Below, in pieces: positions 12,042-54,612 of a stretch of DNA of 64,000 nt; position 1 is the stretch's first letter, and the number at the start of each line of letters is the position of its first letter. The translations under genes were made by a program, and so were the position numbers. The notes beneath the pieces are model-generated. The model was not told where the DNA came from. It saw only the letters and a program-made list of their open reading frames with translations, and did not search any database. The stretch is from a virus, in IMG/VR virus record IMGVR_UViG_3300044801_000187, positions 5,952-69,951 of that record. One strand, 5' to 3'.

Positions 12042-12842
12042 TTGATTAAAGCCGAACTGCTCCAAGACGCCACGGACGCCCAGGTCAAGCGTTTCATGAC
12101 CGACCCGACCTACGTCTGGGAAGAGAAGCACAACGGCGACCGCCGCCTCATAGCTAAGCAAGGCCTGGACATCAACGACTTCAATCGGAACGGCGAGCCC
12201 GCGAAGGGGCTTCCGCCGAACGTCATTGACGCCCTGCGAAAGCACCCCCTCCACAAATTCGTGATCGACGCAGAGTACGTCTACGCCGAGCGCCCCGAGA
12301 AAATCTACGTGTTCGACATGCTGCACTCGGGCGACGACGCGATCGTCGCGCTGCCGCTGTCCGCACGCAAGGGATACCTGCACTCCGCGTTCGACGGCTT
12401 CCACCCCGACGTTCCCGTCGTGGAGAGCGCGGCGACCCCGCAGGAGAAGTTGGCGCTGATCGAGCGCATCATGCGCGAGCACGGCGAAGGGTTCGTGATG
12501 AAGGACCTGACCGCCCCGTACCGCCCGTCGGACGGCAACCGCCGCTGGAATTTCAAATATAAATTCTGGAAGACCACAGATTGTGTGGTTCTCGGACCTT
12601 CACCGAAAGGGCACGACAGCGTTCGAGTCGGGGTGTACGACGAGACCAATAAATTGATTGACATCGGCGGCATATCGCTAGTCAGCAAAGAAAAACTGGC
12701 TATAAGAACTGTAGTAGAGGTAAAATACTTGTATTCAACACGTAATCGTCACATAGTTCAACCATCGTTGCTACGCGTTAGAACGGATAAGGAAGCCAGA
12801 GAATGCACCACGAGCCAGCTTGTAACGGGCAAGGGCCAGTAG
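12042..12842 (+). CDS. Minimal ATP-dependent DNA ligase
   Basis: EEKHNGDR (motif I), IDAE, YVFDML, GEGFVMKD, W.KYK and OB-fold VEVKY...QPSLLRVRTDK; the last about 290 nt are lower GC. Confidence 0.85.
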   Translation: MIKAELLQDATDAQVKRFMTDPTYVWEEKHNGDRRLIAKQGLDINDFNRNGEPAKGLPPNVIDALRKHPLHKFVIDAEYVYAERPEKIYVFDMLHSGDDAIVALPLSARKGYLHSAFDGFHPDVPVVESAATPQEKLALIERIMREHGEGFVMKDLTAPYRPSDGNRRWNFKYKFWKTTDCVVLGPSPKGHDSVRVGVYDETNKLIDIGGISLVSKEKLAIRTVVEVKYLYSTRNRHIVQPSLLRVRTDKEARECTTSQLVTGKGQ

Positions 12843-13495
12843 TTTACAGAATACGAAACCTGCGTAACGGAAAGAGGTATATAGGCTCCACGATGAATTG
12901 TGCGTCGCGGATGTACTACCACATCAATAGTCTGCGCCGACGCAAAAGCAAATGCTTGAAATTGCAGAACGCATTTACCAAGCATGGAGAAGACAATTTC
13001 GTGTTCGAGATCATAGAGCATTGCACTGAGGAGAATCTGATCGAACGGGAGCAACACTACTTAGACCAAAGACCGGAGTACAATATCAGCTTTATCGCCG
13101 GACCGAAAACACGATATGGTTTGAAGTCAACACCAGAACATCTGGCGAACATGAGTAAGGCCCTAAAGGGGCGCATCAGCCCGATGAAGGGGAAAAAGTT
13201 CACGGTGGAACACAAGCAAAGGCTAAGTGAGTCCAACAAGAACAAGCATATAGGAAACACCAGCCGCCGCATAGACTTGACCGGAAAAAACTTCGGGAAG
13301 TGGTTTGTAATAGGGCCGGGTAAGCGGAACGCCGAAGGCAAACTATGGTGGAGAGTGCGATGCCGCTGCTGTAACACCGAGAAAGAAGTGGAAGGCTCAC
13401 TGCTTAGGAACGGACGTTCTCGAAGCTGCGGTAGTATCAAAAGGAATTCAAAAGAATGGCGAAGAAACGCAAACTCGACAAGGTTCAGATGGTGA
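12803..13495 (+). CDS. GIY-YIG homing endonuclease with NUMOD3-like repeats
   Basis: VYRIRNLRNGKRYIGST...REQHYLD...EYNI; low GC. Confidence 0.8.
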   Translation: MHHEPACNGQGPVVYRIRNLRNGKRYIGSTMNCASRMYYHINSLRRRKSKCLKLQNAFTKHGEDNFVFEIIEHCTEENLIEREQHYLDQRPEYNISFIAGPKTRYGLKSTPEHLANMSKALKGRISPMKGKKFTVEHKQRLSESNKNKHIGNTSRRIDLTGKNFGKWFVIGPGKRNAEGKLWWRVRCRCCNTEKEVEGSLLRNGRSRSCGSIKRNSKEWRRNANSTRFRW

Positions 13496-14322: not shown

Positions 14323-14856
14323 ATGGCATCTGCACAACTACGGCTCTATCATCGACGAAAAAAGCTTGGACTTTGTGTCACCTGCGGTAACGTGCCGCCA
14401 CGGGAGGGAATCGTCAGATGCAATCAATGTGCGTCCGACCGTTGCGAAGTCTCAAAGCGGCAGAAGGCTCGCCGCCCGAAAGGGGTTTGTAGGTCGTGTC
14501 TGAAACGAAAAACCGCGAAGGGCAAAAGCACTTGCCAAAAATGTAGAAGCAGAGAAGGATAAAGGTCTAAGCAGAAGTATCGAGAAATTCGACTTCAAGT
14601 AATCGTACTTTATGGAGGAAAGTGCCAGTGCCCTTGGTGCAACGTGACCAATCCGAAGTATCTCCAGTTGGATCACAAAAATAACGACGGTGGAAAAGAG
14701 CGGAAGTCATTACCCGCAACGCTTAGAGGGGGGCGGTTTTTTGAACTCGTGTTGAAACAAGGCAAGAGAGACGATTTACAGCTTTTGTGTGCAAATTGCC
14801 ATCAAGCTAAAAGGTATGGCGGCTGCGCTAAGGAAGATCATGACCACGCCAATTAA
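14323..14856 (+). pseudogene. HNH endonuclease with in-frame TAA at 14560-14562
   Basis: The frame continues after the stop: YGGKCQCPWC...LQLDHKNNDGG...LQLLCANCH. Confidence 0.75.
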
Positions 14857-15472
14857 ATACCCGAGAACTATGCATTTTTTGTGGAGCCCCGGCCTTCAAA
14901 ACGATGATCGTATGCTAGAATCCACCGCTGATTGGCGGGGTCGGCAGGTGATCGTCACCGAGAAGATGGACGGGTCCAATTGCAGTTGGTATCGTGACGG
15001 TATGCACGGTCGATCCCTTGAAATAGACTCCCACCCCCAATGGGACAAAGTCAAGGCCCTGCACGCCGAAATCGCGCACGAAATCCCCCTCGGTTGGCGA
15101 ATATCGGGGGAGAACATGACCGCCGTCCACTCGATCAAATATGACGATTTGCTCTCACTCTTCTTGGTGTACTCGATCTGGAACGAGGACAATTACTGCC
15201 TAAGCTGGAGTGAGACGGTGGAGTGGTGCGCGTTGCTCAATTTGGTGCATGTCCCCGTGATCTACTGGGGTGGGTATAGCGACGGTGTCTGTAAGGGTTT
15301 GTGCGGTCAGTTGGATACTAATGTACAGGAAGGGCTGGTTGTTCGCCCAGCCGATAGGTTCCATTTTCGTGATTTTTCTACCTCGGTTGCGAAGTGGGTT
15401 AGGGCTAATCACGTTCGTTCGAATTCGGAGCATTGGAGCACGGGAAATATTCAATTCAACGGGGTTAAATGA
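14840..15472 (+). CDS. RNA ligase (nucleotidyltransferase family)
   Basis: KYPRT.H..WS, VTEKMDGSN, ISGEN, EGLVVR and AKWVR..HV. Confidence 0.8.
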   Translation: MTTPIKYPRTMHFLWSPGLQNDDRMLESTADWRGRQVIVTEKMDGSNCSWYRDGMHGRSLEIDSHPQWDKVKALHAEIAHEIPLGWRISGENMTAVHSIKYDDLLSLFLVYSIWNEDNYCLSWSETVEWCALLNLVHVPVIYWGGYSDGVCKGLCGQLDTNVQEGLVVRPADRFHFRDFSTSVAKWVRANHVRSNSEHWSTGNIQFNGVK

Positions 15473-15847: not shown

Positions 15848-16309
15848 ATGCCGCCGAAGATCAATGACGATTACACGTGGGTCAGCTTGGGGATCATTCG
15901 ATCTCCGATCCATCGGTGGGGTGTCATTGCCAAACAGACCATCCCGAAGAATAAGTACGTTATTGAGTACACGGGACAGTTGCTCAACCGTCGCCAAAAC
16001 AAAGCGATTAGAGCGGACGGACGGCGGTATTGCTTCACTTATCTTACTGATGACCGTGGATACTGGACACTAGACGGAGCCGTGCGAGGCAGCGGTGCCG
16101 AGCGCGTTAACCACTCCTGCGACCCAAACCTTTACGCGGAGATTCGCGGGCATCGAGTCTACTTCTACTCCCTTCGACGCATCAAGAAGGGCGAAGAACT
16201 GACCGTGGATTACCAGTTCGAGTACAGTAAGACCCCCGTTGCTTGTCTTTGCGGGATGAAGAAATGCCGAGGCACGATCAACCTGTTGAAAGGCCAAGCA
16301 TCCAAATGA
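15848..16309 (+). CDS. SET-domain lysine methyltransferase with post-SET Cys motif
   Basis: SPIHRWGV, EYTG, NHSCDPN, IKKGEELTVDY and CLCGMKKCRG. Confidence 0.88.
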   Translation: MPPKINDDYTWVSLGIIRSPIHRWGVIAKQTIPKNKYVIEYTGQLLNRRQNKAIRADGRRYCFTYLTDDRGYWTLDGAVRGSGAERVNHSCDPNLYAEIRGHRVYFYSLRRIKKGEELTVDYQFEYSKTPVACLCGMKKCRGTINLLKGQASK

Positions 16310-19016: not shown

Positions 19017-19218
19017 TGGTTACCATCGTTTTTTCGAGCGCCGCTGCGGGCGCGGCCGCATCTAATAGACGAGGCGGATTTTACATGGTTACGAGGAAAA
19101 TACGCTGCGACGTGACAACGGTCGCAAACGGGGACTTTTCCGCCCCTAGAAAGAAGGGCTTGTGGGCGTAGTCCAGGCTGTGAAGCAGGCGCTAAGCCCG
19201 CAGGCGACAGGTGACCCG

Positions 19219-21738
19219 GTGAAGACTGGCATCAGGCAGCCCCTCGACCCAAGCAGGCGGAGTCAGGACGCACGAGACTTCGAAGACAAGATGCGGCGCA
19301 AGATCATCGGCCAGGACGCGGCCGTGGACAAGGTCGTCGGCATCTACCAGATGTTCCTCGCCGGGCTGAACCCTCCGGGGCGGCCGGTCGGCAACCTTCT
19401 ATTTTTGGGGCCGACGGGCAGCGGCAAGACCCGCGTGGTCGAGGCGATGGCCGAGACCCTCTTCGGGTCCACCAACGCCTGCATCAAGATCGACTGCGCC
19501 GAGTTCCAGCACTCCCACGAGATCGCCAAGCTGATTGGGTGTTTCGTTCCCGGTTCCCGAGTCCTCATGGCTGATGGTACGTCCAAACCCATAGAGGATG
19601 TCAAAGTCGGAGATTTGGTCATCACTAAGGATGGCACTGTTCGTCAGGTGACTTTCCTGCATAGATATGAGCAAAATGGGCCGATGGTGCGGTTAGACAT
19701 CGGAAATAGCAACGTGCCGGTAACCTGTACGCCAACACACATGATTTGGGCGATCAAGGCAAACCGGGGAAACAAAAGAGCGACTACCAAGGCGGGGCGT
19801 GATGTGGGGTCTCAGTATCTCCCGGAAAATTTGGAATATGTGGCGGCGGGGACGTTGCAAAAGGGAGACATAGTCGCCTACCCAAGGCAGAAATTCGTGT
19901 GGAACGCCGAACCCATGGCGATGGCGGCGAGTGTAGGAGCGGGGAGCGTGGGGGAAACAAGCTCCACACCAATGTCAGGAATCGTCGGTAAGACCATTGA
20001 TTTGGCGGAGTACGGGAAAGGAGTTAAAGGATTCTGTTTTGATGCTACGCATGTATGGTGCAGCCAGGGGTTTAACCTTTCTCGTTTTACTAAATACGCC
20101 AAGAAAATCGGACTAATTGAAAGGCGGTTATCTTGGGGGGCTAAGTTAACCCGCTTCATCAGAATTGATGAAGCATTTTGCAGATTGTCTGGATTTTATT
20201 TAAGCGAAGGAGGCAACAGCAAATCGCGGAGGAGCATAAATTTCACATTCGGAGGTCACGCACAAGATGGACCATGTGTACAGGAGGTTGTAGAGCTTCT
20301 TGAAAAAGTGTTCGGTGGCGGTACAGTTAATGCAAAAAACCGAGGAGGGAGTGTTCGAATCTACTACTTCTCTAAGATTATTGGGTTGTTAATGGCCGAC
20401 CTTTTTGGGGATTTCGTGCTAAGGAAACACTTGCCAGAGTGGTTCTTCAGGTTGGAGCCGAGGTTGCTGTGGAATTTCCTCGATACGGCGTTCCTCGGGG
20501 ATGGCGGCAAATCCGTGCCTCGCCGCTTGGACTATTCTACCTCGTCGCCCGACTTGGCCTCCCAGATGCGGCTGATGATCCACAATTTGGGGTACACCAC
20601 CCAGATGCAGCGGCATGAACGAAAAAAAGATAAACGCGGGTACAAGGTTTCACCGCGCTATCGGCTGTATGTCGCGGGGGATCAATTCATGCGGTTTGTT
20701 GACAATTTGCCCTCCATCCGCAGGAGTGCGAATGTGTTCAACCCCGGCAACGCTGGAATCCAACGTATGTCGCATGTGGATGACGACTATATCTATTTTC
20801 GCATCAAGGGTGCGGGCACGGTGCTTTACAAGGGGCTTGTCCATGATTTTTCTGTCAATGAAAAAACATCGTATGTTGTTGAAAATATGACAGTTAGCAA
20901 CAGCCCGCCCGGATACCTGGGGCACCGCGAGACGCACCCGCTGCTCACGCAGGAGGCGCTCAACCAGTGGCACACGGAAAAGCTGAAGCTGTCGATCCTG
21001 CTCTTTGACGAGATCGAGAAGTCCTCCGACGCCCTGTGGCAGCTCCTCCTCGGCGTCCTGGACAAGGCCACGCTCACGCTCGGCGACAACCGCCGCGTCG
21101 ACCTGTCCCAGTGCATCATCATCCTGACCTCAAACCTGGGCGCGGCCGACATGCAGACCCTCATGGAGGGCGGCATGGGCTTCAACGTCCCGAGGGAGCA
21201 GATCGTGGTCGACCAGGCGCTAGACGACAAGATCGACCGGACGGCCATCGACGCGGCGCGGCGCAAGTTCGCGCCGGAGTTCATGAACAGGATCGACGGC
21301 ACGGTCGTGTTCAAGACCCTGCGCGACGAGCACGTCCGGCAAATCCTCAACATCGAGCTCGCGATGGTGCAGCAGCGCATCCTCTGGGCCGTCGGCGGCA
21401 AGCAGTTCGTCTTCCAGTGCACGCAGCGGGCCCTGGACGCGGTCCTGGCCGAGGGCACCGACCCGAAGTACGGCGCTCGCCACCTCAAGCGCACGATCGA
21501 GCGCCAGCTGGTCTTCCCGCTCGCCAACATGACGGCGACGGACCAGATCAAGCTCGGAGACTACATCGAGGTCGACTACGAGGGGCCGATCCCCGCGAAC
21601 GGCCAGCCGTGCGAGGGCAAGTTCGTCTTCACGAAAGCTGCGGAGAACGTCATGGTCCCGAACCTCCTGAAGAACATCGGGGCGCTGGGGACCGCCGCCC
21701 CCACGGGCCGGGTGGTCATCCCGAAGAAGATCGTCTAA
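19219..21738 (+). CDS. ClpA/ClpB-family single AAA+ (D2-like) ATPase containing an intein
   Basis: IIGQDAAV, FLGPTGSGKT, KLIG|SPPGYLG, LLFDEIEK, PEFMNRID and YGARHLKR. Confidence 0.88.
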   Translation: MKTGIRQPLDPSRRSQDARDFEDKMRRKIIGQDAAVDKVVGIYQMFLAGLNPPGRPVGNLLFLGPTGSGKTRVVEAMAETLFGSTNACIKIDCAEFQHSHEIAKLIGCFVPGSRVLMADGTSKPIEDVKVGDLVITKDGTVRQVTFLHRYEQNGPMVRLDIGNSNVPVTCTPTHMIWAIKANRGNKRATTKAGRDVGSQYLPENLEYVAAGTLQKGDIVAYPRQKFVWNAEPMAMAASVGAGSVGETSSTPMSGIVGKTIDLAEYGKGVKGFCFDATHVWCSQGFNLSRFTKYAKKIGLIERRLSWGAKLTRFIRIDEAFCRLSGFYLSEGGNSKSRRSINFTFGGHAQDGPCVQEVVELLEKVFGGGTVNAKNRGGSVRIYYFSKIIGLLMADLFGDFVLRKHLPEWFFRLEPRLLWNFLDTAFLGDGGKSVPRRLDYSTSSPDLASQMRLMIHNLGYTTQMQRHERKKDKRGYKVSPRYRLYVAGDQFMRFVDNLPSIRRSANVFNPGNAGIQRMSHVDDDYIYFRIKGAGTVLYKGLVHDFSVNEKTSYVVENMTVSNSPPGYLGHRETHPLLTQEALNQWHTEKLKLSILLFDEIEKSSDALWQLLLGVLDKATLTLGDNRRVDLSQCIIILTSNLGAADMQTLMEGGMGFNVPREQIVVDQALDDKIDRTAIDAARRKFAPEFMNRIDGTVVFKTLRDEHVRQILNIELAMVQQRILWAVGGKQFVFQCTQRALDAVLAEGTDPKYGARHLKRTIERQLVFPLANMTATDQIKLGDYIEVDYEGPIPANGQPCEGKFVFTKAAENVMVPNLLKNIGALGTAAPTGRVVIPKKIV
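19540..20901 (+). mobile_element. Intein (454 aa) with LAGLIDADG endonuclease
   Basis: Starts CFVPGSRVLMADG and ends VVENMTVSN|S; contains GFYLSEGG and AFLGDGG; splicing restores KLIGSPPGY; lower GC. Confidence 0.9.
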
Positions 21739-22502: not shown

Positions 22503-22904
22503 TTGTATGCAATCGAATGCGAGTGCTTCGAACCCGAGTTCCGCTGGACCGAGCGCGTCTTCCGCAAGGCGCTGCTAGACGCTCGCAAGAAGGGCTACGT
22601 CTGGGTCGCCACGATCTCCGGCCGCATCGCAGGCTTCCTGCTCGCGGGCAAGGAGAACGGCAAGGCCAGCATCGAGACCGTCAACATCCCCAAGGTACAC
22701 AGGCGCAAGGGCGTCGCGAGCAAGCTGATCATGGCCTGCGAGCGCGGGATGGACTCGCGCGGCTTCAAGGAGATCAAGCTGGAGGTCTGGACGGAGAACC
22801 CGGCTTTCATCGTCTATTGGAACCTGGGCTACCGCGTGAACGGGTTCAGGCGTAATTATTATAGATTGCATGCTCATGCGATTAGCATGTCAAAGAAACT
22901 TTGA
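22503..22904 (+). CDS. GNAT acetyltransferase (RimI-like)
   Basis: HRRKGVASKL, IKLEV..EN.A...Y..LGY and RRNYY; both ends are lower GC; start uncertain. Confidence 0.8.
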   Translation: MYAIECECFEPEFRWTERVFRKALLDARKKGYVWVATISGRIAGFLLAGKENGKASIETVNIPKVHRRKGVASKLIMACERGMDSRGFKEIKLEVWTENPAFIVYWNLGYRVNGFRRNYYRLHAHAISMSKKL

Positions 22905-23645: not shown

Positions 23646-25202
23646 CTACCTTGCGGCTTTCTTGACCTTCTTGATCTTCACGCCGAAGATGGCGTCCGCC
23701 TTCACCGGGCTGACGAGCTGCGCGACCACGCCCTTGTCCTTGGAGACGACGAAGGCCTGGAGCGCCCTGCCGGACGTGATGTAGCCCGCGTTGGAGTGCC
23801 AGCGGTCGATGCCGGAGAGGCTCTTGAGCTGGATGGCCGTCAGGCCGTGGATTTCGCGGATGACCTCATGGTGGAGGTGGCCCGTGAAGAAGTACTGGTA
23901 GTTGGACTGCGAGAACTTGTCGGCCGCTTCCTTGGTCATGACCGCCTGGAGGTCGCCTACCTTGACGCTGTCGCCGTGGTTGAAGCCGAGCAGCGAGTCG
24001 CCGTACAGGACGTACTGGCGGCGGGCCGGGGACACGCGGACGGTGACGTCCTTGGCGTTCTTGTACATGGCCTGGAGGTACAACATGGTCGTCATCGCGC
24101 TGGAGCGGTCATGGTTGCCTGGGACGGGAATCCACTCGACGGGCGCGATCTGGCGGAGCATCTCGACGTGGTCGTGGGCGAGCTCGCTGCCCTCGATGAG
24201 AATCTGGGAGAAGGTGCCGTCGCAGTCCTGCGGGGTGCCCCTCGTGGTGCCGCCCTGCGGGTTGTCGATGTGCAGCCAGTCGGACCCGGAGCCGCAGATG
24301 ATCTTCTCGGGCTTGCCGAACTTGGCGATCATCTCGCCCAGGTTCGTCGTGTGCTCGATCAGCAGGTTCCTCGCCTCCTGGCGGTTGTAACTCTGGCCGG
24401 TCTCGTCCTCCCAGCCGTGCTTGCCGTAGTGCAGGTCGAACGGGGAGAGCACGACGGCGAACGGCTCGTCGGCCTTGCCGATGTCGAGGACAGGCGGCTT
24501 GTAGTGCGGGAGGTTCTTCTGGACATGCGCCAGGAGCGGCTGGTAGACGTTCTGGTCGAAGTTCTGCCACTTCTCGTGGTCGCTCTGGATGAGCCTCCAC
24601 TTCTTCTTCTCGAACGCCTTGTAGAGGGACTGCTTCTTCTTCTGGATTATGTCCTCCACCATGTCGTCCTCGTTGCGCGTGAGGAGCTCCTCGGTGGTGA
24701 CAGGCTCGGAGTCGTGCGTCCAGCCGTGGACCGACTTGTACTCGATGAACCAGTCGCGCCGCATTCCGAACGTGCGGCATATCTCGTTGATGGTCTCGGG
24801 CTTGCCCGTCCAGTTCGAGTACGCGTCCTTCATGGCGCGGTGCTGCGAGCCGGAGAGCTGGATGCGGACCTTGCAGCGGTCCAGGAAGGTGATGTAGGTG
24901 TCGGTCTCCTTGTTGTACGTGTACTTCTCGTCGTAGATGAGGTTGCTGTCGGCCTCGGTCAGCTCGCTCTCCTTGGGCGGCTCGCTCGCCTCCAGCCTGC
25001 ACCCGGCCTCCTCAAGGAAGCCCTTAAAGCGCGACCAGTACTTGGCGAGCATCTTCTCGGGGTACTTCGCGTTCGCACGCCAGAAGTCGCGCCCGATCAC
25101 GATCTCGGGGTTCGCGTCCTGGAGGCGCTGGGCCTCATGGAGGAGGTCTTCGCGCTTAGCCTGCGGCTGCTCTGTCAAAGGTGCGTTCTTCTTAGTTGCC
25201 AA
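23646..25202 (-). CDS. Calcineurin-like metallophosphoesterase
   Basis: DLHYG, GSDWLH, PGNHD, NHGD and GHLHH. Confidence 0.8.
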   Translation of the reverse strand: MATKKNAPLTEQPQAKREDLLHEAQRLQDANPEIVIGRDFWRANAKYPEKMLAKYWSRFKGFLEEAGCRLEASEPPKESELTEADSNLIYDEKYTYNKETDTYITFLDRCKVRIQLSGSQHRAMKDAYSNWTGKPETINEICRTFGMRRDWFIEYKSVHGWTHDSEPVTTEELLTRNEDDMVEDIIQKKKQSLYKAFEKKKWRLIQSDHEKWQNFDQNVYQPLLAHVQKNLPHYKPPVLDIGKADEPFAVVLSPFDLHYGKHGWEDETGQSYNRQEARNLLIEHTTNLGEMIAKFGKPEKIICGSGSDWLHIDNPQGGTTRGTPQDCDGTFSQILIEGSELAHDHVEMLRQIAPVEWIPVPGNHDRSSAMTTMLYLQAMYKNAKDVTVRVSPARRQYVLYGDSLLGFNHGDSVKVGDLQAVMTKEAADKFSQSNYQYFFTGHLHHEVIREIHGLTAIQLKSLSGIDRWHSNAGYITSGRALQAFVVSKDKGVVAQLVSPVKADAIFGVKIKKVKKAAR

Positions 25203-25270
25203 AGTGTTCCCTCCGAGAAACAGCGTCTACGAAAGAGGCGCGTAGTCGTTCAATACTGCGGATTGCGCCA

Positions 25271-25711
25271 TTATTTCCAGTTCATGCTGGCGGTCGGGTT
25301 CAGCAAATACTCCGCTCCTTTGAGAAGCAAAGCGGGATCATCTTGTCCGTGTCCCAACATCCTGTTGCAGTTGGAGCACAATAGGCCCCTGACTTGCCCG
25401 GTTTCATGGTTATGGTCAACATCAAAAGCCCCTTCTTGAACCCTGTCGCATACGGCGCAACGCCCGCCTTGAGCCGTGAACAAAAGATCGTAGTCCGCCT
25501 GCGTAAACCCGTTGTACTTACGGGCCAAGTGTCTTTCCCTGGTTCGCTGATGATCCTTGCTGTATCTCTCCTTCTCGTAGTCAGGATAGGCTATCCGATG
25601 ACCTTTTTGTTTGCAGGTTCTATTACACCATTTCCTGTTTGACGAGCGGGGCTTTAGTATTTCCGCTCCGCATGCTCCGCAGATAACCGTACGATCCAAC
25701 GGAATAGTCAT
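25271..25711 (-). CDS. Endonuclease VII-like homing endonuclease
   Basis: QGGRCAVC...VDHNHETGQVRGLLCSNCNRMLG. Confidence 0.8.
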   Translation of the reverse strand: MTIPLDRTVICGACGAEILKPRSSNRKWCNRTCKQKGHRIAYPDYEKERYSKDHQRTRERHLARKYNGFTQADYDLLFTAQGGRCAVCDRVQEGAFDVDHNHETGQVRGLLCSNCNRMLGHGQDDPALLLKGAEYLLNPTASMNWK

Positions 25712-26886
25712 CGCCAGCCCAGACTAGCCTTTACGAACGCCGCCGCGACTTGGGGGACGATCGCGTTACCATATCCGCGTAGTAGCTCCACCCTTTTGGA
25801 TACCCCATAAGCCAGCGGGAAAGTTCCGGGTTCAGTCGGCCTTTGGCGGCCGTCCCTGTAGGGGAGCCACTCGCAGTCTGCCCAGAATCCTCCGGTTGCT
25901 GTTGGACCGTCCCCGCTATGTCCTTCAGGTCGCCCCTGTAGGAGCCCGGCTTGTTCGGGTCCCTCGTGTTGCCCTGCTCGCTCGGCGCGTTCCCCTTGTA
26001 CCGCAGGGGCTTCGGCAGGCCGTCCGACGACGCGTCGAACGCCTGCGGCGTCGGCCACCCCGTGTACTGCGCCAGCACCGCCAGCGAGGTTATCGCCGTC
26101 CTGTTCGCGCCCGTGCCGTCCCTCTCGCCCATCCGTTTCTTCATCGCGAGGTGAGCCTCCGGCGTCTTGTTGTCGTCCCCCGCGACTGGGGTCGGCCACG
26201 GGGCCTCCACCATGTCCGCCTGCTGGAACAGCCCTGGGTAGTCCTTCCCGTTCACCCGCGAGTAGCGCCCCATCGTCTCGCCCGCCTTCGGCGTCCTCCA
26301 CTCCGCGAGCAGCGCCGCGCCCCTGATCGTCAGGTTGCCGCGCTTGTAGGTCTGCGAGCCCCTGTCCCCGTCCGACTTCATCGGACTGGGCCATCCAATA
26401 GAGGCGCTGCCTTCTGTGCGGGGCACCGAGGCTATGTGCGCCCAAAACACACGACCCGACGGCGTAGCCTTGGGCTTCCAGGTCTGTCGAAACAAGGTCG
26501 AGCCATCCGTGCTTAATAGCCGCTTCAACCTGCTCCCCAAAAATTCGCTGAGGCCTATGGACCGCGATGAGCCTTTCCCATATAGGCCAGAGGTGTCGCT
26601 CGTCCTCGGTTCCTTTCCGCCTTCCTGCGGTGCTGAAGGGCTGGCAGGGGCAGGAGCCTGTCCAGACGGGGCCGTCCCAGCCTGCGAGCTCGAGGGCGTG
26701 GGCCCACCCGCCGATCCCGGCGAAGAAGTGGCACTGTCCGTAGCCCCTGAGGTCGTCCGCTGGCACGTCTGCGATGCTTCGTCCATCTACGTCTCCCTGG
26801 GGGATCAGCCCGTCCTGCATGAGCTTGCGGAGCCACTCGCAGCAGAAGGGGTCGATCTCGTTGTAGTAAACTTTCACCTCAATCAA
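25708..26886 (-). CDS. C5 DNA methyltransferase, catalytic (alpha) polypeptide
   Basis: Motifs FFAGIGG (I), CPCQPFS (IV), EQV (VI), HRRQRLY (VIII) and GYGNAIVP (X). Confidence 0.85.
   Translation of the reverse strand: MIEVKVYYNEIDPFCCEWLRKLMQDGLIPQGDVDGRSIADVPADDLRGYGQCHFFAGIGGWAHALELAGWDGPVWTGSCPCQPFSTAGRRKGTEDERHLWPIWERLIAVHRPQRIFGEQVEAAIKHGWLDLVSTDLEAQGYAVGSCVLGAHSLGAPHRRQRLYWMAQSDEVGRGQGLADLQARQPDDQGRGAARGVEDAEGGRDDGALLAGEREGLPRAVPAGGHGGGPVADPSRGGRQQDAGGSPRDEETDGREGRHGREQDGDNLAGGAGAVHGVADAAGVRRVVGRPAEAPAVQGERAERAGQHEGPEQAGLLQGRPEGHSGDGPTATGGFWADCEWLPYRDGRQRPTEPGTFPLAYGVSKRVELLRGYGNAIVPQVAAAFVKASLGWR
25731..26786 (-). CDS. Overlapping alternative-frame beta polypeptide of the methyltransferase
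   Basis: Four W(P/R)(T/S)P modules and motif-IX-like RLNPELSRWLMGYP, as in M.EcoHK31I beta. Confidence 0.75.
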   Translation of the reverse strand: MDEASQTCQRTTSGATDSATSSPGSAGGPTPSSSQAGTAPSGQAPAPASPSAPQEGGKEPRTSDTSGLYGKGSSRSIGLSEFLGSRLKRLLSTDGSTLFRQTWKPKATPSGRVFWAHIASVPRTEGSASIGWPSPMKSDGDRGSQTYKRGNLTIRGAALLAEWRTPKAGETMGRYSRVNGKDYPGLFQQADMVEAPWPTPVAGDDNKTPEAHLAMKKRMGERDGTGANRTAITSLAVLAQYTGWPTPQAFDASSDGLPKPLRYKGNAPSEQGNTRDPNKPGSYRGDLKDIAGTVQQQPEDSGQTASGSPTGTAAKGRLNPELSRWLMGYPKGWSYYADMVTRSSPKSRRRS

Positions 26887-27301
26887 TACCGGATTGACGG
26901 CTAAGCTGAGCTTCTAGCCAATCCGCGAGGCGGCGAATCACAGCGGGGTCAGTACAGTTCTGCTTCAGCATGCTCGCTATCCAGGAGATTACAGAGATGT
27001 TGCCCCTTACGTAGCCCTGCTCAGGGACAGCGCGGTCTAAGGTAGGTGAGTCGTAATGCGAGCCTTTACGAGTATTGATCTGAAACGGCATGCCGAAGAT
27101 CGGGCAGCAGTTATCGAGCGGCCAGGAGGCAAACACATCCTCCTTGGTGATGTTGAAAGGAAGGCCTCGCTTCTTCGCCCGGGACCTGGCCCCGTAGAAC
27201 ATTCCAGCAACCTGCGTGCATATTTTGCAGTTGTTATTGCCGTATCTGACGGGGGTTGGATGCCCCCGCCTACAGTGACTTTTTCGCCAACCTTTGGCCA
27301 T
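26879..27301 (-). CDS. Homing endonuclease
   Basis: HCRRGH, AKKRGLPFNIT, CPIFG and SPTLDR..GYVRGN. Confidence 0.7.
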   Translation of the reverse strand: MAKGWRKSHCRRGHPTPVRYGNNNCKICTQVAGMFYGARSRAKKRGLPFNITKEDVFASWPLDNCCPIFGMPFQINTRKGSHYDSPTLDRAVPEQGYVRGNISVISWIASMLKQNCTDPAVIRRLADWLEAQLSRQSGID

Positions 27302-27367
27302 TGAACTACCCGTATGCTGAATACTGAAGTTCGTTCTAACTTTTGAATTCTTAGGTGAGAGCCTCCC

Positions 27368-27478
27368 ATGAAAACCGTCACAGCAGGCAAGCTGCCGAAC
27401 ATGCACAGCACGACGTTCAGGGGCATCCACGTCGTGATTAGGGAAGGCTTTTGGGCGGGGCCGCGAAAGTGCCTGTAA
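27368..27478 (+). pseudogene. Orphaned original 5' end of the pyrophosphatase-RelA gene
   Basis: MKTVTAGKLPNMHSTTFRGIHVVI parallels MLKVSDKLPNMHSTMFRKIPVVI at 28027. Confidence 0.8.
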
Positions 27479-27479
27479 A

Positions 27480-28034
27480 ATGAACAAAAACATCAAAAAT
27501 TTGATCGGTCAGAGGTTCGGCAGGCTCGTAGTGACTGAATACGCAGGAGCCACGGCGGGCGGAAAAGCCCAATGGACCACCGTCTGTGACTGCGGCGTAG
27601 AGACCGTGAAGACCGGAGTCTATCTGCGCAAGGGCATTACAAAAAGCTGCGGCTGCCTGCGGGGAGAGAACACCAAACTGCCTGAGGGGGTATCGGCGAG
27701 AAACTCTATCCTGCGTTCCTACAAAAAGCACGCCAAGGAGCGAAACCTCGTCTGGGAAATCTCAGAGTCGTTGTTCAACGATTTGACTAGCCGTCCGTGT
27801 TTCTACTGCGGCGTAACTCCTGGCAACAAGTACTCTAAAAAGGACTCCAATGGCGTCTTCATCTACAACGGCGTTGACCGGAGTGATAGCCACAAGGGAT
27901 ACTTTTTGGAGAATGTGGTACCGTGCTGCGCGATGTGCAACCGGGCGAAGATGGTGATGATCCGGGAGGAGTTCCTCTCATGGGTCGATAGGGTTTACCT
28001 CCACCAGCACAAAAGCGAGGCGGCGCGTGCTTAA
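27480..28034 (+). CDS. HNH-type homing endonuclease
   Basis: RFGRLVV, CDCG, KSCGC, PCFYCG and NGVDR..GY..NVVPCCAMCNRAK. Confidence 0.8.
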   Translation: MNKNIKNLIGQRFGRLVVTEYAGATAGGKAQWTTVCDCGVETVKTGVYLRKGITKSCGCLRGENTKLPEGVSARNSILRSYKKHAKERNLVWEISESLFNDLTSRPCFYCGVTPGNKYSKKDSNGVFIYNGVDRSDSHKGYFLENVVPCCAMCNRAKMVMIREEFLSWVDRVYLHQHKSEAARA

Positions 28035-30090
28035 AGTGTCAGACAAGCTCCCCAACATGCACTCCACGATGTTCAGGAAAATCCCCGTCGTCATACAGTG
28101 GCCCAAAGGCTCCACAAGAGTTGGCGAGCGGGAGGACGGAACGCCGTTCAAAACTGAAATGACGGCTGACTACGGGTATATTCCCGACACGGTAGCCGCT
28201 GGAGATTCTGAGCGCCTGGACATCTACATCGGGCCGAACGAGGACGCCGAGAACGCCTACGTCGTGGAGCAGATGAAGGAGGACGGCGAGACCTTCGACG
28301 AGTACAAGGTGCTGCTCGGCTTCGACAGCCTGGACGAGGCGGAGGAGACCTACCTGGAGCACGTCGAGGAGCAGCAGCTCGGCGACATCTCCGAGGTGCC
28401 GTTCGAGTACCTCTTCGACACGGTCATGGAGGAGCGCGGCGAGGACGAGGAGCAGGAGCGCGAAGAGATCGGCGCGGAGCTGGAGCAGGACGAGCAGAAG
28501 GTCGCGGCCGTAGAGCCGGACAAGGTCGACACCGACCCCGGCGTAGAGTTCAAAAGGATGTTCGAGTACCTGAACTCCCTCGGCTGGCTAGGCAGGAACC
28601 CGTGGTACCCAGAGAAGTGGCCGTTCTTCGCGATGCGCCTGTACAGCGACGGGTGGAAGTGGTCGCGGTGGGACAAGCCCGAGGCGGAAGGGAACAACCT
28701 CGCGGACCTGAAGAAGTTCCTGGCGCAGTTCGACCTCGGCAAGCTGAAGACCCCGAAGACGCCGACAACCATCAACGCGCAGCCTGTGCCCAGGAAGCTG
28801 AACGCGGGGCACGACGAGGAGCAGCACGGGGAGAAGCTGTCCGTGATCGACGCCTTCGTCAAACTCTACAAGCACGAGGTGGACTTCTACGAGGAGGTCG
28901 CCGCCATGGTCGCGGAGGAGCTCGACGGGGCGATCCAGGACGCGGGCATCCGCGCCATTATCACGCACCGCGCCAAGAAGCCGAACAGGCTGCGCGGGAA
29001 GCTCGTGAAGCGGGACCAGAACAGGCACTACCAGTCCTTCAGGGACATCAAGGACGACATCGTGGACCTGGCCGGGGTGCGCGTCGCGCTGTACCTCCCG
29101 AAGGACAGGGACGCGGTCGGCGGGATCATCGAGAAGCTGTTCGCCCCCGTCCGCGCCCCCAAGCGGTTCCCGGAGAACAGGAGCGAGGGGGACGGCGTCG
29201 GCTACGTGGCCACGCACTACCTCGTCCAGCTGCGCCCCGAGAACCTGCACAAGAAGGAGCTCCGCTACGCGGACACGAACGTGGAGATACAGGTCGCGTC
29301 CGTGCTCATGCACGCCTGGAGCGAGGTCACGCATGACCTGACGTACAAGCCGATCGCGGGGCCGCTGACGGAGGACGAACTCCGCATGGTCAACGACCTC
29401 AACGACGTGGTGCAGTCCGGCGAGGCGATCCTCAACGAGCTCCAGGAGGCCGTAGAGGGCCGCACCTCCAAGGAGCTCAGGTTCGACATCACGGCGGCGC
29501 TCACCGCGCTGGCCGGGAAGACGGCGGCGGGCAAGGTCACGTGGACGGAGACCATAGGCGTCGCGTCCAGGCTGGCGGCGCTGGACCAGAGCGGGGCGCT
29601 GAACGGGTACATGAAGGCCCTCGGCTGGGAGCAGATGGGGCCGTCGCAGTGGTACAGCCCGACCCACCCGCAGGACGTGGTCCACGTGTTCCACGACGGC
29701 TGGATTCACGCCCAGTGGGGCAGGAACATAGGCTCCGGGGACGGCGAGCAGGACCTCAAGGCGTGGCTCGGCCAGGTGGGCCTCGGGGAGGCGCAGCACC
29801 CGCACAAGCAGAGGCCCGTCACGCTCGGCGAGGGCGGCGTGCACACGAGCTACCTGAGGGCCAGGCTGGCGCTGTGGAAGGCCCACAAGGCGGACGAGCT
29901 GGATGACAGGCTGAGGGCGTATAATGAGACTCTGCCGAAGCTCCCGGTCGGAGACGAAAGGTACATGGAGCGGGCGCTCGACGCCCTGCACCCCGGCAAG
30001 AGCATGACGGAACTCTGGGCCCTGCCCAAGGACGAGTATCACAAGGTAATCGCCCTGGCGCAGGACTTAAAAAAGCAGGCAAACACCTAA
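28027..30090 (+). CDS. Polyvalent protein: inorganic pyrophosphatase plus RelA/SpoT synthetase domains
   Basis: PPase: DYGYI...D.ERLDIYIG...FDEYKVLLGF. RelA/SpoT: RAK...DLAGVRV...GY.ATHY...EIQV.S..MHAWSE..HDL.YK. Confidence 0.85.
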   Translation: MLKVSDKLPNMHSTMFRKIPVVIQWPKGSTRVGEREDGTPFKTEMTADYGYIPDTVAAGDSERLDIYIGPNEDAENAYVVEQMKEDGETFDEYKVLLGFDSLDEAEETYLEHVEEQQLGDISEVPFEYLFDTVMEERGEDEEQEREEIGAELEQDEQKVAAVEPDKVDTDPGVEFKRMFEYLNSLGWLGRNPWYPEKWPFFAMRLYSDGWKWSRWDKPEAEGNNLADLKKFLAQFDLGKLKTPKTPTTINAQPVPRKLNAGHDEEQHGEKLSVIDAFVKLYKHEVDFYEEVAAMVAEELDGAIQDAGIRAIITHRAKKPNRLRGKLVKRDQNRHYQSFRDIKDDIVDLAGVRVALYLPKDRDAVGGIIEKLFAPVRAPKRFPENRSEGDGVGYVATHYLVQLRPENLHKKELRYADTNVEIQVASVLMHAWSEVTHDLTYKPIAGPLTEDELRMVNDLNDVVQSGEAILNELQEAVEGRTSKELRFDITAALTALAGKTAAGKVTWTETIGVASRLAALDQSGALNGYMKALGWEQMGPSQWYSPTHPQDVVHVFHDGWIHAQWGRNIGSGDGEQDLKAWLGQVGLGEAQHPHKQRPVTLGEGGVHTSYLRARLALWKAHKADELDDRLRAYNETLPKLPVGDERYMERALDALHPGKSMTELWALPKDEYHKVIALAQDLKKQANT

Positions 30091-30110
30091 CCGCACCCCG
30101 AAGAGGCAGA

Positions 30111-30506
30111 ATGCGATCCGACCGCACGCTCCGGAAATGGTATAAGAGGATCAACAAGTTCTTCGACGGCGCGTGCCCCGACCGGGTGTGCGTGCGGTAC
30201 GCGAAGCCGGGCGAGGAGAAGCGGGAGATCGAGAAGAAGTACTTCGGCTGGGCGGACGACCCGAGCACCCCCACCTGGCCCCACGGCGAGAAGACCTGCC
30301 CGAACTGCCGCCACGACTTCGAGATCGTCCTGGACGAGAAGGCCCCCTGGATCAGCATCCTGTCCACCCTGGCGCACGAGATGATCCACCTCGCCACGAA
30401 CATGAAGGACGACCACGGCCCCGCCTTTTCCCAATGGCATGAGTACATTACGGAGCGCGGCATCTTCCGGAAGCACGCACTCTATCGCAACCACACGCTT
30501 TTTTAA
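30111..30506 (+). CDS. SprT-like zinc metalloprotease
   Basis: TLAHEMIH...DDHGPAF. Confidence 0.75.
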   Translation: MRSDRTLRKWYKRINKFFDGACPDRVCVRYAKPGEEKREIEKKYFGWADDPSTPTWPHGEKTCPNCRHDFEIVLDEKAPWISILSTLAHEMIHLATNMKDDHGPAFSQWHEYITERGIFRKHALYRNHTLF

Positions 30507-30508
30507 CT

Positions 30509-31011
30509 ATGACGAACGCAAAAATTACTCTAGGACTGAGCAAAAGCCAAATTAAACAGTTGCAGATCGGACTGACAAAAGGGGAACGCACCAAGAACAA
30601 CAAGGCGCGATACTTACTTAAGAAAAAAGCGAGAGCGGCGGACTGCCATCCAGACCGAATTCTTTTCGCAAAAGGGCTGTGTTCGAAATGTTACAGAGAA
30701 AAATATCGCACAGAAACCGCTAAGGAATTCTACGCGAAACAGGCCAGCAAAAAATTTCGTGAACGACTGTATAACATGCCAGATGATGAGTTTCAGGCGC
30801 AACGAAAATCGCAAGATGACCGTTGCGCTAGTGTGTAGATCATAACCATGCAACCGGAGAACGACGTATGCTTCTGTGCCAGCGGTGCAACCGGGGGCTT
30901 GGGATGTTTTTGGAAAACATTCAAACCCTACGAAACGCCGCTGATTATTTAGAGCGGTTTGCTAAATCATTGATTTCAAATGCTAAATGTTCTGAAACTT
31001 CTCGGACCTAA
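30509..31011 (+). pseudogene. Endonuclease VII-like gene with internal deletion and frameshift near 30830
   Basis: SQDDRCA* then VDHNHATGERRMLLCQRCNRGLG in another frame. Confidence 0.7.
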
Positions 31012-31025
31012 GTAGGGGAAAATCA

Positions 31026-34000
31026 ATGAGTTTGTTGGACAAAAAAGCAGCGAAGTTACCTAAAGGCTTTCGCGTTACCCTCCAAAAAGATAAAAGCGGA
31101 GTGTATTACGGCGTTATCTGGAAAGATGGTATTTTCTCAGGCACGTGTCCCATCGCGCATCAGCTTCAAGATACAGCCCGTGCTGCCGCCATTGGGTATG
31201 CTTGGGACATGTCAGGAGAACAGAGACCACCGGACAAACAAGCGTCTATGGACAAAGACGCTAAACTCCACGAGAACGCCTCGACGCAGATCGACGTTCC
31301 GACCAATGTTGCGGCGAAAATACTTGAGCTTAGCAAAGGGCTGATTCCTGATGATGCCCTCTCTGGGGATGGTCGCGTTGAGCATCTGCATTTGACCTTG
31401 AAGTACGGCGTCAAGCCCGACGCGGAGCTCCTCCGCCAGGCCCTCGTCGGCCAGCAGCCCTTCACCGTCACCCTCGGCAAGGTCATGGTCTTCGAGCCGT
31501 CGGAGACGACGGAGTCCCCCGTGGTCGTCGAGGCGCGGGCGGCCGAGCTCGGCCCGCTGCACGAGTCCGTGGGCGAGAAGATGGGCACCTTCCGCGACAC
31601 CTTCCCCTACAACCCGCACGTCACGGTCGCCTACGTCCGCCCGGACGCGGCTGAGCAGTTCGCGGGCAGCGACGCGTTCGCCGGGATCACGTTCCGGGCC
31701 AGCGCGGTCACCCTCTCCAAGCAGGACGACGACAACCAGGTGAAGCTCCCGCTCGGCAAGACGGCCGCCAGCCCAGGCGTGGCCCCGGAGATTCCGCAGC
31801 GCCCCGAGGTGAAGCGCGACGAGCCAGCCGTGGAGCCGCAGCCCGAGCCGGGGCAGAAGAAGCCCGCGCCCAAGAAGCAGCCCAAGAAAAAAATGACGCC
31901 GCAGGACGCCGACAAGCTAGTCGGGGACGCGGCGAGGAGGACCAGGAAGAAGCAGAGGCCGATGCGACCCACGGAGACCCCGCAGTTCAAGGCGTGGTTC
32001 TCTGGGTCGAAGATAGTGGGAGCCGACCGCAAGCCCCTCATGCTGTTCCACGGCACCACGCACGAGATCACGGAGTTCGACCCCGCGAGGGCGAGCGCCG
32101 AAGCGTGGTACGGCCCCGGCCTGTACTTCACGGACTCGAAGATAGACGTGGCGGCGAACTACGCCACGGACAAGGGCCCGGACATCACCCGGAACATCGA
32201 GAACCGTGCGGACTCCATCATGGACGACCTGCGCGAGGAGTACGAGGAGGCGAACGAGCACAGCCTGGACTACAACTCCGAGGACTACAAGGAGCTGTGG
32301 GCCAAGGCGTACGACACGGTCAAGGGTGAGTTCGCGGGGCCGAACCTCGGCGTGACAATGCCCGTGTACGTCAACATGAAGAACCCGGTCTACGTGCTCA
32401 AGAAGGGCGGCACGGAGTTCAACATCGACTTCGACGAGGAGACGGGCGAGGAGTCCGGCAGCGGGCTGGCGCTGTACAACGCCCTCAACCTCGCGGGCGG
32501 GAACTTCGGGGGAGACACGGGCAAAATCTGGGAGAGGATCACGGAGAACGGCACCGAGTTCAGCGCGTGGGACTTCGAGGACGCCGTCCGCGCGAGCGAC
32601 GACATACAGGACGACGAGGGGCGCATGGTCCCCGGGAACCTCATCGCGCAAATCTACCAGAAGATGAACTTCGACGGCATCGTCCAGGACGCATGGAACA
32701 CGTTCGGCGGCGGCGCGTACAAGAAAGATTACGGCGACGACTCTGGGATAGGCATGAAGATGGACAAGGGCGCGAGGCACTACATCCTGTGGGACCCGTC
32801 CAAGGTCAAGAGCGCGATCGGGAACGTCGGCACGTTCAGCCCGAAGAGCCCCAGCATCGTCGCGTCCGCCAGCCCCGCGCTCAGGCGGTGGTTCGGCGCG
32901 TCCAAGGTCGTGGACGACAGCTTCGAGCCCCGCGTGGTCTTCCACGGCAGCAAGTCCCCGTGGGTCACGTCGTTCGACATGGGCATGGAGGGCACGGGCG
33001 TGCACGGCTCCATGAAGTGGGGCGCGATCTGGTTCACCTCCAGCGCGGAGAACGCCGAGGAGTTCGCCGACACGCCGGAGGAGAAGACCGAGGCCAGCAT
33101 CGACGAGGTCACGGTGTACGGCAATGACCCGTACTACGCGGCCGTGTTCGACATTAACGGTGAGAGCCTGTTCGAGGTCGGCCCACACCCGACTGAGGAG
33201 GAGGCGCAGCGCGACGGCGCGACGCAGGCGACGGAGTACAACAAGCACCTCGGCGAGAACACGAACGTGCAGGGCTACTACCTGAAGATCGTCAGGCCGT
33301 ACGTCACCGACCAGGTGCCGAGGGAGAAGGAGTTCGAGGCGGCTAGGGCGGGCAAGCACGACGGGATCATCGCCAAGGACGTGATAGACGGATACACCCG
33401 CAGCGACGTGTTCGTGGTGTTCAGCCCCGCGCAGGTCAAGTCCACGCGCAGCGTGAAGTTCGACCCCGCGAGCGCCCATCTCACGGCTGCGGGCGGGAAG
33501 TTCCCCTCGTTCGCGCAGTACATCAAGAAGAACGGCGGCGTGATCAAACTGCTGGAGTCCATGGGCGACGCGTGGAACCACTACGTGGAGACGGCGGGGA
33601 TGGCCGTTGACGGCTTTGACGAGCTCCCCCCGGCGGAGCAGGAGAAGGCGGCCGAACAGTACGCCTATGAGGACCTGGCGAACCAATACGGGGACAGGGT
33701 GCACTTCTTCCGGGGCGTGATGTACCCCACGGCGATCTACCGCAAGGTTAAGCTGAAGAGCCGCGAGGAGCTGAACACGGGGAAGGTCGGCGTGTTCTGG
33801 TCCTGGAGCGAAAGCAAGGCTGAGGCGCATTGGAGCACGGGCGGCGGGAACACCGTCACGCTGAGGGCGGAGCTGGACAGCCCCAACCAGGTTGACTGGG
33901 ACGACACGATGTTCGTCAACCTCGACCCCAGCACCGGGGAGAACGAGGACGAGTGCCGCCTGAAGGAGGGCGCTAAGCTGAGGCTCACGGGCGTAAACTG

Positions 34001-54608: not shown

Positions 54609-54612
54609 AGAT

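Follow-up and report, generated by a model that had tools for sequence, protein, structure and literature searches.

In phage T4, as outlined by Edgell, Gibb & Belfort 2010 (PMC2988022), the seg and mob homing endonuclease genes are promoter-less cassettes with overlapping open reading frames (ORFs) that cleave a neighbouring gene and leave co-conversion tracts behind. The same review describes one-sided homing in T4, with illegitimate repair at microhomologies, which it attributes to work on the td intron (Parker, Belisle & Belfort 1999). A second set of relevant cases comes from mitochondria, in which endonuclease ORFs make gene hybrids (Allomyces macrogynus atp6; Glomus atp6, atp9, cox2 and nad3), and for Glomus, Beaudet et al. 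2013 (PMC3630166) give identities to relatives of 91-98% for the native gene ends and of 64-81% for the inserted ones. Nuclease genes have also been described as marking the boundaries of exchange between phages (PMC10448857). Here, we analyse a 64,000-nucleotide (nt) stretch of viral DNA (hereafter the window; positions 5,952 to 69,951 of the IMG/VR virus record IMGVR_UViG_3300044801_000187, 69,951 bp, CheckV completeness 38%) that is rich in homing endonuclease genes (roughly ten), one of which, HNH#3, lies between two copies of the 5' end of a gene for a protein with InPase and RelA/SpoT domains. We consider it highly probable that this free-standing endonuclease reached the start of the InPase-RelA/SpoT gene by DNA-level intronless homing, and that the donor allele was co-converted through a homologous junction on the 3' side and a non-homologous one on the 5' side.

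The locus is built from three plus-strand ORFs (stub, HNH#3 and working gene), which use the three reading frames, one each. The stub ORF (36 amino acids, aa; 27368-27478) is preceded by a leader (27303-27367) and consists of a homologous part (codons 1-24, 27368-27439) that runs into a leader-like tail (27440-27479), the latter holding its last 12 codons and TAA stop. This stop and the ATG of HNH#3 (a free-standing gene of the HNH, beta-beta-alpha-metal, type; 184 aa, 27480-28034) are separated by one A (TAA-A-ATG), while the HNH#3 stop codon (28032-28034) falls inside the working gene and overlaps the region of its GTG start (28027). The working gene is a 687-aa ORF, with an N-terminus that reads MLKVSDKLPNMHSTMFRKIPVVI, an InPase domain (PF18823, residues 14-127) and a RelA/SpoT nucleotidyltransferase domain (PF04607, residues 314-441). 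As argued below, its first 61 codons (28027-28209) appear to be foreign and donor-derived, and the rest (28210-30090) resident.

In homologues of this protein the N-terminus reads MISVTADKLPNMHST.FRGIPVVIQWPKGS or MKT/MKS.TADKLPNMHST..., and the first 24 residues of the stub are this same N-terminus, which the working gene repeats in a form one codon shorter (MLKVSDKLPNMHSTMFRKIPVVIQWPKGS). The two copies are identical at 42 of 54 nt over codons 7-24, a repeat that exceeds chance. Used as a tblastn query against 37 related loci (one metagenome scan gave 19 of the loci), the stub had a single match in each of 22, in every case to the true N-terminus of the gene (E 5e-10 to 3e-6). An initial annotation of the window, made from its letters, had described a stub, an HNH gene and a restarted peptide, and all three lie where it had placed them, the match to the gene's N-terminus covering stub codons 1-24.

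The comparison with endonuclease-free relatives, which the initial annotation had proposed among its checks, could be made with two loci (L021 and L022) that are syntenic with the window at 86-96% nucleotide identity, from the exonuclease gene to past the long gene. Both have the order methylase, leader (85 nt in L022, from methylase start to gene ATG) and intact InPase-RelA/SpoT gene, and both lack the HNH#3 gene as well as the block 26890-27374. Against L022, the window holds four additional blocks: 25292-25707 (with the endonuclease gene HNH#1), 26890-27374 (HNH#2 and an altered leader), the interval between the stub end and the point where the gene restarts (HNH#3), and 30485-31251. The nuclease is thus present in one and absent from others among close syntenic genomes, as is typical of homing endonucleases. 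Since the nuclease-less relatives show the same 24 codons as the start of the gene, the stub is not an independent gene. Neither a homologue of HNH#3 or HNH#2 nor a second copy of the N-terminus was found in any of the 22 N-terminus-encoding loci, within the flanks fetched (363-6000 nt upstream, of which the short ones could hide a nuclease farther out). Wider searches gave little more: the whole 687-aa protein had no close relatives in IMG/VR, an alignment query of the InPase-RelA/SpoT protein matched distant jumbo-phage loci only, and megablast of 26000-31000 against phages returned weak methylase matches only.

The arrangement recurs in independent assemblies. Logan contigs of run X1, a possible source of this DNA, cover 27011-27886 and 27868-28536, and those of run X2, from a different sample and study, cover 26928-27497 and 27612-28573 (leaving out 27498-27611), in every case with 0 differences from the window; the X2 contigs span the stub/HNH#3 junction, the HNH#3/gene junction and position 28210. 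A chimera of two co-existing strains might be suspected in a metagenome contig of modest depth (~5 in X1 and X2), yet two runs from different studies agree over the junctions, and the stub/tail junction offers no long shared sequence by which an assembler could be misled, so that we attach next to no credence to an artefact of assembly.

The two copies of the 5' end differ in their affinities. The stub resembles L022 closely (58 of 64 nt identical over 27375-27438; 48 of 54 over the codons 7-24 compared above) and has a G+C content at third codon positions (GC3) of 0.83 (27368-27439). It also carries two substitutions, D->G and P->H, each at a site that shows no variation among 24 aligned homologues or among the translations of 20 of 20 loci, a pattern that fits relaxed constraint and decay. 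These features support the view that the stub is the resident-like, displaced and redundant 5' end of the InPase-RelA/SpoT gene.

The working gene, on the other hand, is far from L022 at its beginning and near to it afterwards: identity is 42/54 over codons 7-24 and 79/114 over the next stretch, then 67/72 right after position 28210 and 87% further on. The per-segment comparison drew on 20 loci, with L005 set aside because its match begins at residue 16, and L003 and L004 because they duplicate, in the viral collection, the contigs from which L031 and L034 come. A likelihood change-point in the 466-nt ungapped alignment of the two falls exactly at 28210, with mismatches at 47 of 168 positions (28%) before and 30 of 298 (10%) after it (Fisher p = 1.1e-6; none of 1000 permutations reached as high a value). 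Codon usage changes in step, as GC3 is 0.77 over 28027-28116 and 0.57 over 28117-28206, and then 0.90-1.00 in every 90-nt bin of 28207-29916, while the corresponding bins of L022 have values of 0.87-0.93. Before the boundary 37 of 56 codons differ from L022, 30 by synonymous changes only and 7 nonsynonymously; beyond the boundary the number is 25 of 99, with synonymous changes alone in 7. At the protein level, residues 1-61 are 77-85% identical to close relatives and 84-85% to distant ones, as opposed to 85-96% and 52-59%, respectively, for residues 62-140. A tract of donor sequence thus lies beside the insertion, as co-conversion leaves it, and its sharp end supports placing the homologous junction at 28210.

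Given the synonymous divergence, the GC3 values and the pattern of protein identities, we reason that the first 61 codons represent a long-diverged functional allele of another lineage. The lower-GC codons after HNH#3, the return of high GC3 near 28210 and the divergent copy of the lost segment had all been recognised in the initial annotation, and these observations hold. Its description of the 5' end as 'recoded' was apt in so far as a divergent replacement is present, and went too far in suggesting design: synonymous changes alone account for 30 of the 37 codon differences, and a start shortened in the same way, MLKxSDKL, occurs naturally in one homologue (P0020). The tract seems neither decayed nor designed, and is most likely an ordinary foreign allele carried along as flanking donor DNA. 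P0020 itself is not the donor, being only 69% identical over residues 1-61.

The two 5' ends lie in direct orientation, 659 nt apart, as they would if the 5' end had been duplicated in tandem, the nuclease had landed between the copies and these had diverged later. Divergence in place, however, predicts neither that the copies should differ at 12 of 54 nt while the stub remains identical to L022 at 48 of 54, nor that the divergence of the working gene should run 114 nt past the duplicated part and stop sharply at 28210, nor that it should be mostly synonymous and accompanied by a shift in GC3. We therefore regard a duplication in place as very improbable.

On the upstream side, the stub ends abruptly (...GTCGTGATT) against leader-like DNA, with at most 5 shared bases at the join, which can be placed within 27436-27441. 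The tail (27440-27479) aligns with the native leader of L022/L021 with a local score of 14.5 (not reached by any of 300 shuffles), a run of 12/12 identical bases and a common GTAAAA before the ATG; it aligns less well with the leaders of L031, L020 and L026-L028, where 2-6 of 300 shuffles reach the score. The ATG of HNH#3 accordingly stands where the relatives have the ATG of the gene. This abrupt end of the stub against leader-like DNA supports a non-homologous upstream junction. Taken with the sharp boundary at 28210, it agrees with the earlier suggestion that one junction was homologous and the other illegitimate. Folding adds nothing to the identification of the tail as a leader: the tail and the native leaders each have a hairpin 15-25 nt before the ATG, and the tail of the window scores z = -0.05. 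As for the leader that precedes the stub, its first part (27303-27315) corresponds to the initial 13 nt of the native L022 leader and matches them at 12 of 13 positions (local alignment score 11, reached by 4 of 300 shuffles); there follow 36 AT-rich nt without an L022 counterpart and then TAGGTGAG...CCC, which abuts the ATG of the stub. Among relatives, the leaders of InPase-RelA/SpoT genes (L022 5946-6000; L038 2083-2132; L031 5939-5988; L020 1639-1688) share a ..ACTAnnCGTATCATAGATG.. motif, a hairpin whose sequence varies, and TAAAAC[A/T]ATG, features that may constitute a phage promoter and leader element.

HNH#3 itself looks intact. It matches an HNH family (E 3.9e-19) and an endonuclease family (E 1.6e-18) of PHROG, as well as the HNH region of the restriction enzyme PacI (E 1.5e-5), and retains all 33 columns that are invariant in 9 homologues (including its Cys pairs, D133-R134, N145 and N154), with two Cys pairs in the N-terminal module and a core of C..C / DR / N / CC..CN..K. 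These features together indicate an HNH / beta-beta-alpha-metal catalytic core, with the caveat that no Pfam family exceeded its threshold and no Pfam HNH model reached E 10. The nearest relatives in a set of 5.8 billion proteins (P0122 and P0123) are 62-63% identical. Matches were more distant elsewhere: 33% identity at best among viral contigs, in unrelated contexts; at most 42% in the phage collection; and, when HNH#3 was aligned with its two nearest homologues and searched against genome contigs, at most 44% over most of the length or at most 61% over the N-terminal 61 aa only.

The insertion point is a conserved coding stretch, of the kind in which introns and inteins are frequent, and HNH#3 might be imagined inside a group I or group II intron or an intein, with the stub as an exon 1 spliced to the downstream gene. 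We hold this to be extremely unlikely. Rfam gave 0 matches at E <= 1 over 26700-28600, in line with the initial annotation, which reported no intron or intein features, and stub, nuclease and gene occupy three different frames. HNH#3 starts and stops on its own codons, in a frame unlike those of both neighbours. The downstream gene, too, has a start codon to itself, and its N-terminus is complete, aligning with homologues from residue 1 onwards, so that splicing would duplicate residues. HNH#3 is thus not embedded in a self-splicing intron or intein. The same genome offers a visible contrast, since a true intein (Hint + LAGLIDADG, in frame, at approximately residues 117-580) occurs in a ClpB-like AAA ATPase ORF (19162-21738) and coincides with the low-GC island 19451-21050.

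From these observations we propose the following course of events. In the donor phage, the nuclease gene would probably have stood between the leader of the gene and its start codon and not inside the coding sequence, a position to which we are led by the HNH#3 ATG taking the place of the relatives' gene ATG. The nuclease would have cut the naive allele, probably near codons 23-30, within the conserved VVIQWPKGS stretch. Repair would then have copied three donor segments into the recipient (a leader remnant, the nuclease gene and codons 1-61 of the target gene), by homologous recombination at ~28210 on the downstream side and through a non-homologous join, or one at a few bases of microhomology, at ~27436-27441 on the upstream side. 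Such a join would have left the recipient's own first 24 codons as a redundant stub, and no splicing would be needed, since the hybrid working gene has a full start already. Thus, the idea of an insertion into a coding sequence, as first put forward, is apt for the recipient, the 5' end of whose gene was hit, and less so for the donor, in which the leader-like tail points to a nuclease placed ahead of the start codon. Codons 21-29 of the carrier allele and of L022 show 9 differences (7 third positions and a TCC/AGC serine codon), which is consistent with immunity of the new allele to cleavage.

Since the stub stop lies 1 nt before the HNH#3 ATG and the HNH#3 stop overlaps the GTG region of the working gene, the cassette probably relies for its expression on the resident promoter and on translational coupling. 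An AGGTGAG motif ~8 nt upstream of the stub ATG is a plausible ribosome-binding site, no Shine-Dalgarno-like motif was seen before the ATG of HNH#3, and a scan of 26800-28300 for promoters and terminators found nothing exceeding shuffled expectation. It could even be that the stub, whatever its origin, has been kept as a useful upstream ORF that drives HNH#3 by coupling. The TAA-A-ATG junction and the ribosome-binding-site-like motif ahead of the stub and not of HNH#3 would suit this addition to the proposed origin, as would the T4 seg and mob genes, which PMC2988022 portrays as promoter-less and coupled to upstream ORFs. The native leaders, however, likewise have no obvious Shine-Dalgarno motif, and the two substitutions at invariant positions of the stub tell only that the peptide itself is unconstrained; on balance we deem retention for this purpose rather unlikely.

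A mirror image of the locus may exist less than 3 kb away. HNH#1, of the endonuclease VII type (25271-25711, minus strand; PF02945, E 1.1e-22), is absent from L022, and its ATG overlaps the TGA of the C5-cytosine methylase gene (25708-26886, minus strand). The last 78 nt of the methylase gene (25708-25785, minus strand) form a diverged tract, and putatively a replacement 3' end, with 16 mismatches to L022, whereas the next 644 nt have none. The HNH#1 ORF ends (25271-25291, six codons and a stop) in ASMNWK*, which agrees with the methylase tail of L022 (ASLDWK*) at 16 of 21 nt, while the tail of the working methylase (ASLGWR*) agrees with it at 15 of 21. This is suggestive of a foreign C-terminus, an endonuclease ORF and a native C-terminus downstream; as the tail repeat is short, it falls short of proof. 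Of the four nuclease islands that lie within 6 kb, two would then have the arrangement, HNH#3 at a 5' end and HNH#1 at a 3' end. We tentatively entertain the broader idea, which we think somewhat doubtful, that homing endonucleases of this lineage routinely colonise the ends of coding sequences as cassettes of a nuclease and a replacement end, with the displaced end as a regular by-product or even a coupling ORF. The methylase ORF (392 aa) has peculiarities of its own: its match to PF00145 is confined to positions 66-161 of a 324-position profile, the central part is rich in Arg, Gly and Ala, and an overlapping frame (25731-26786, minus strand, 351 aa) would encode four WPTP-like repeats without a Pfam match. 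As L022 has near-identical ORFs in both frames, and 25786-26429 is 100% identical to it, a sequencing error is unlikely.

Several observations weigh against the sequence of events proposed for HNH#3. The tail resembles most the leader of the resident-type L022 (the run of 12/12), which would not be expected of a distant donor. The leader before the stub is short of ~31 nt that precede the ATG in L022, so that the proposed course of events works only if the resident leader was different by nature or if a further deletion took place. Overall, the window matches L022 in mosaic fashion (72-100% identity per 75 nt), so that low values alone are not unique to the 5' tract, and the presumed donor arrangement (leader, nuclease and gene, with no stub) was not found in searches with HNH#3 and with P0020, the latter without any match among viral contigs. 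Finally, the whole block 26890-28209 could have been imported with the stub already in place.

This last possibility deserves to be spelled out, for it would make the aberrant join older and place it in another phage, the low-GC block having come afterwards as one unit through two-sided recombination, and the stub-bearing cassette being itself mobile. Such an import would account for 26890-28209 being one continuous low-GC island with resident-like sequence at 26889 and at 28210, and for the identical arrangement in the run of the second study; the flanks of HNH#1, too, are both diverged from L022, as they would be if the cassette had arrived ready-made (towards the methylase, 16 of 78 nt mismatched; over 25155-25291, an identity of 73-79%). 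It sits less well with the stub, whose GC3 of 0.83 and 58/64 identity to L022 are typical of resident DNA. It is also countered by one further contig (from run X3; 339 nt, depth 2.5, <95% identity), which reads through part of HNH#2, continues over 27328-27424 and then jumps to 28081. The contig seems to come from a relative in which an HNH#2-like gene and a short leader of similar kind precede an uninterrupted gene. Single and of low depth as it is, it suggests that the arrangement existed without HNH#3, and lends weak support to the short stub leader being natural. We judge importation of a finished block, after a join in an earlier carrier, to be a real possibility, albeit less likely than not.

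The surroundings of the locus are rich in similar elements. HNH#2 (26879-27301, minus strand; phrog_3322, E 1.6e-25) is a free-standing endonuclease that occupies the remaining divergent intergenic space and ends 2 nt before the methylase start. The fourth low-GC island (30485-31251), absent from L022, holds a 109-aa ORF (30509-30838) and a 47-aa C-terminal fragment of endonuclease VII (30868-31011; PF02945, E 6.5e-6), probably a broken nuclease gene; in L021 the same intergenic site is taken by a different endonuclease VII-like gene (L021 4823-5137). A 2340-aa ORF is open from 31026, and its homology to L022 begins at the ATG at 31248, hence the first 74 codons may not be part of the gene. 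Elsewhere in the window, low-GC islands contain ORFs of homing-endonuclease type at 12803-13495, 47989-48651, 53799-54608, 54505-54996 and 58714-59736, comprising a GIY-YIG + NUMOD3 protein, a SegE-like GIY-YIG, two HNH ORFs (the first a weak match, E 5e-4 to 9e-4, below the Pfam cut-off) and a NUMOD3 protein. Further ORFs of such islands (14789-15472, 15848-16309 and 22503-22904) encode an RNA ligase (PF09414), a SET-domain protein (PF00856) and a GNAT acetyltransferase. The mosaic identity to L022 and the abundance of nucleases in the window fit the view, set out in PMC10448857, that nuclease genes mark exchange boundaries between phages.

The InPase-RelA/SpoT protein also contains two extra Trp-rich modules of ~90 aa (LGWLGRNPWYPEKW... 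and LGWEQMGPSQWYSP...DGWIHAQW; 28508-28802 and 29580-29850) that are absent in L022. The first occurs in P0008, and the second in P0009-P0012, P0014-P0016 and others; both have high GC3, and by their look were not recently imported. The nearest cultured-phage match to the InPase region (28027-28500) is found in Tunturiibacter phage Tunturi_5 (308,711 bp; 50.8% identity at 75% query coverage), and the runs with window DNA are peat metagenomes, with no RNA run listed among them. An acidobacterial host for the window phage is possible.

We stress that the process is a known one, and that the locus is a natural footprint and not a new mechanism; each of its ingredients has been described for T4 (in the account of PMC2988022). 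What it offers is a well-resolved natural record of a free-standing homing endonuclease entering a coding region without an intron or intein, with the donor's version substituted for the cut end and the previous end stranded by faulty repair as a datable fossil. The boundary of the stub predicts the place of the cut, in the VVIQWPKGS-coding stretch of the InPase-RelA/SpoT gene, and the two 5' ends provide a matched pair of alleles for testing, one presumed sensitive and one presumed immune. There is a practical side as well, as stubs and hybrid 5' ends can mislead single-gene phylogenies and gene callers (the source annotation's own call of the working gene begins at M11 instead of the GTG at 28027). 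Our literature searches, whose coverage mostly excluded subscription journals, found no report on phages in which a homing endonuclease adjoins a gene end that was duplicated or displaced, and none of a replaced 5' end with a stranded stub.

The intronless homing of T-even phages (SegF/gene 56, SegG/gene 32 and MobE/nrdB, as presented in PMC2988022) resembles the HNH#3 case in its promoter-less intergenic cassettes that overlap the start or stop codons of their neighbours, in a target presumed to lie in the adjacent gene, in the presence or absence of the nuclease among close relatives and in the co-conversion of a donor tract. It differs in that HNH#3 belongs to another lineage, resembling the PacI HNH region with no Pfam HNH model over threshold, and in that its cleavage is a predicted one. 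It differs further in the upstream flank, which here is non-homologous and retains a 24-codon duplicate of the target, an outcome that we did not find described for the natural T4 cases. A clean insertion would have both flanks homologous; the duplicate-bearing flank is a departure from the canonical outcome of homing and not from the family. For this flank, the closer parallel is the one-sided repair of the td system in T4 (as summarised in the same review), where homology is strong on only one side of the break and slight or lacking across it, with junctions at microhomologies and a route into ectopic or poorly matched sites, although that was a laboratory system built on an intron, and the product here would be a natural one of a free-standing gene, with a junction that we infer.

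Split genes, such as Aeh1 nrdA/mobE and T4 gene 60/mobA (PMC2988022), share with our locus a free-standing nuclease within what is a single coding region in relatives. In those examples, as the review portrays them, both halves are needed and reassemble. In our locus nothing is missing from the downstream gene, whereas the stub, which duplicates residues of that gene instead of complementing them, is redundant. An intron- or intein-borne nuclease is likewise a poor comparison for HNH#3, as the downstream gene has its full N-terminus.

The mitochondrial gene hybrids (in the examples given in PMC3630166) share the layout of a foreign gene end that moves with an endonuclease ORF, the native end being left alongside, unused; in both settings the native end is near to relatives and the inserted end far (here 58/64 versus 69-78%), and the differences are mostly synonymous. 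They concern 3' ends in organelles and LAGLIDADG or GIY-YIG ORFs that are often in phase with the gene, while HNH#3 is of the HNH type, in a separate frame, at the 5' end of a phage gene, so that the layout is mirrored. The HNH#1/methylase case is the closer structural match, since it concerns a 3' end and its nuclease ORF, although of endonuclease VII type, runs into the displaced methylase tail. Its presence in the same 3 kb suggests that the outcome at HNH#3 was not a one-off, and may tie the intronless homing of phages to the gene hybrids of fungal mitochondria. If composite cassettes of this kind were indeed routine, they would be the phage counterpart of those hybrids and would add to introns and inteins a third means by which a nuclease can settle inside a gene without destroying it.

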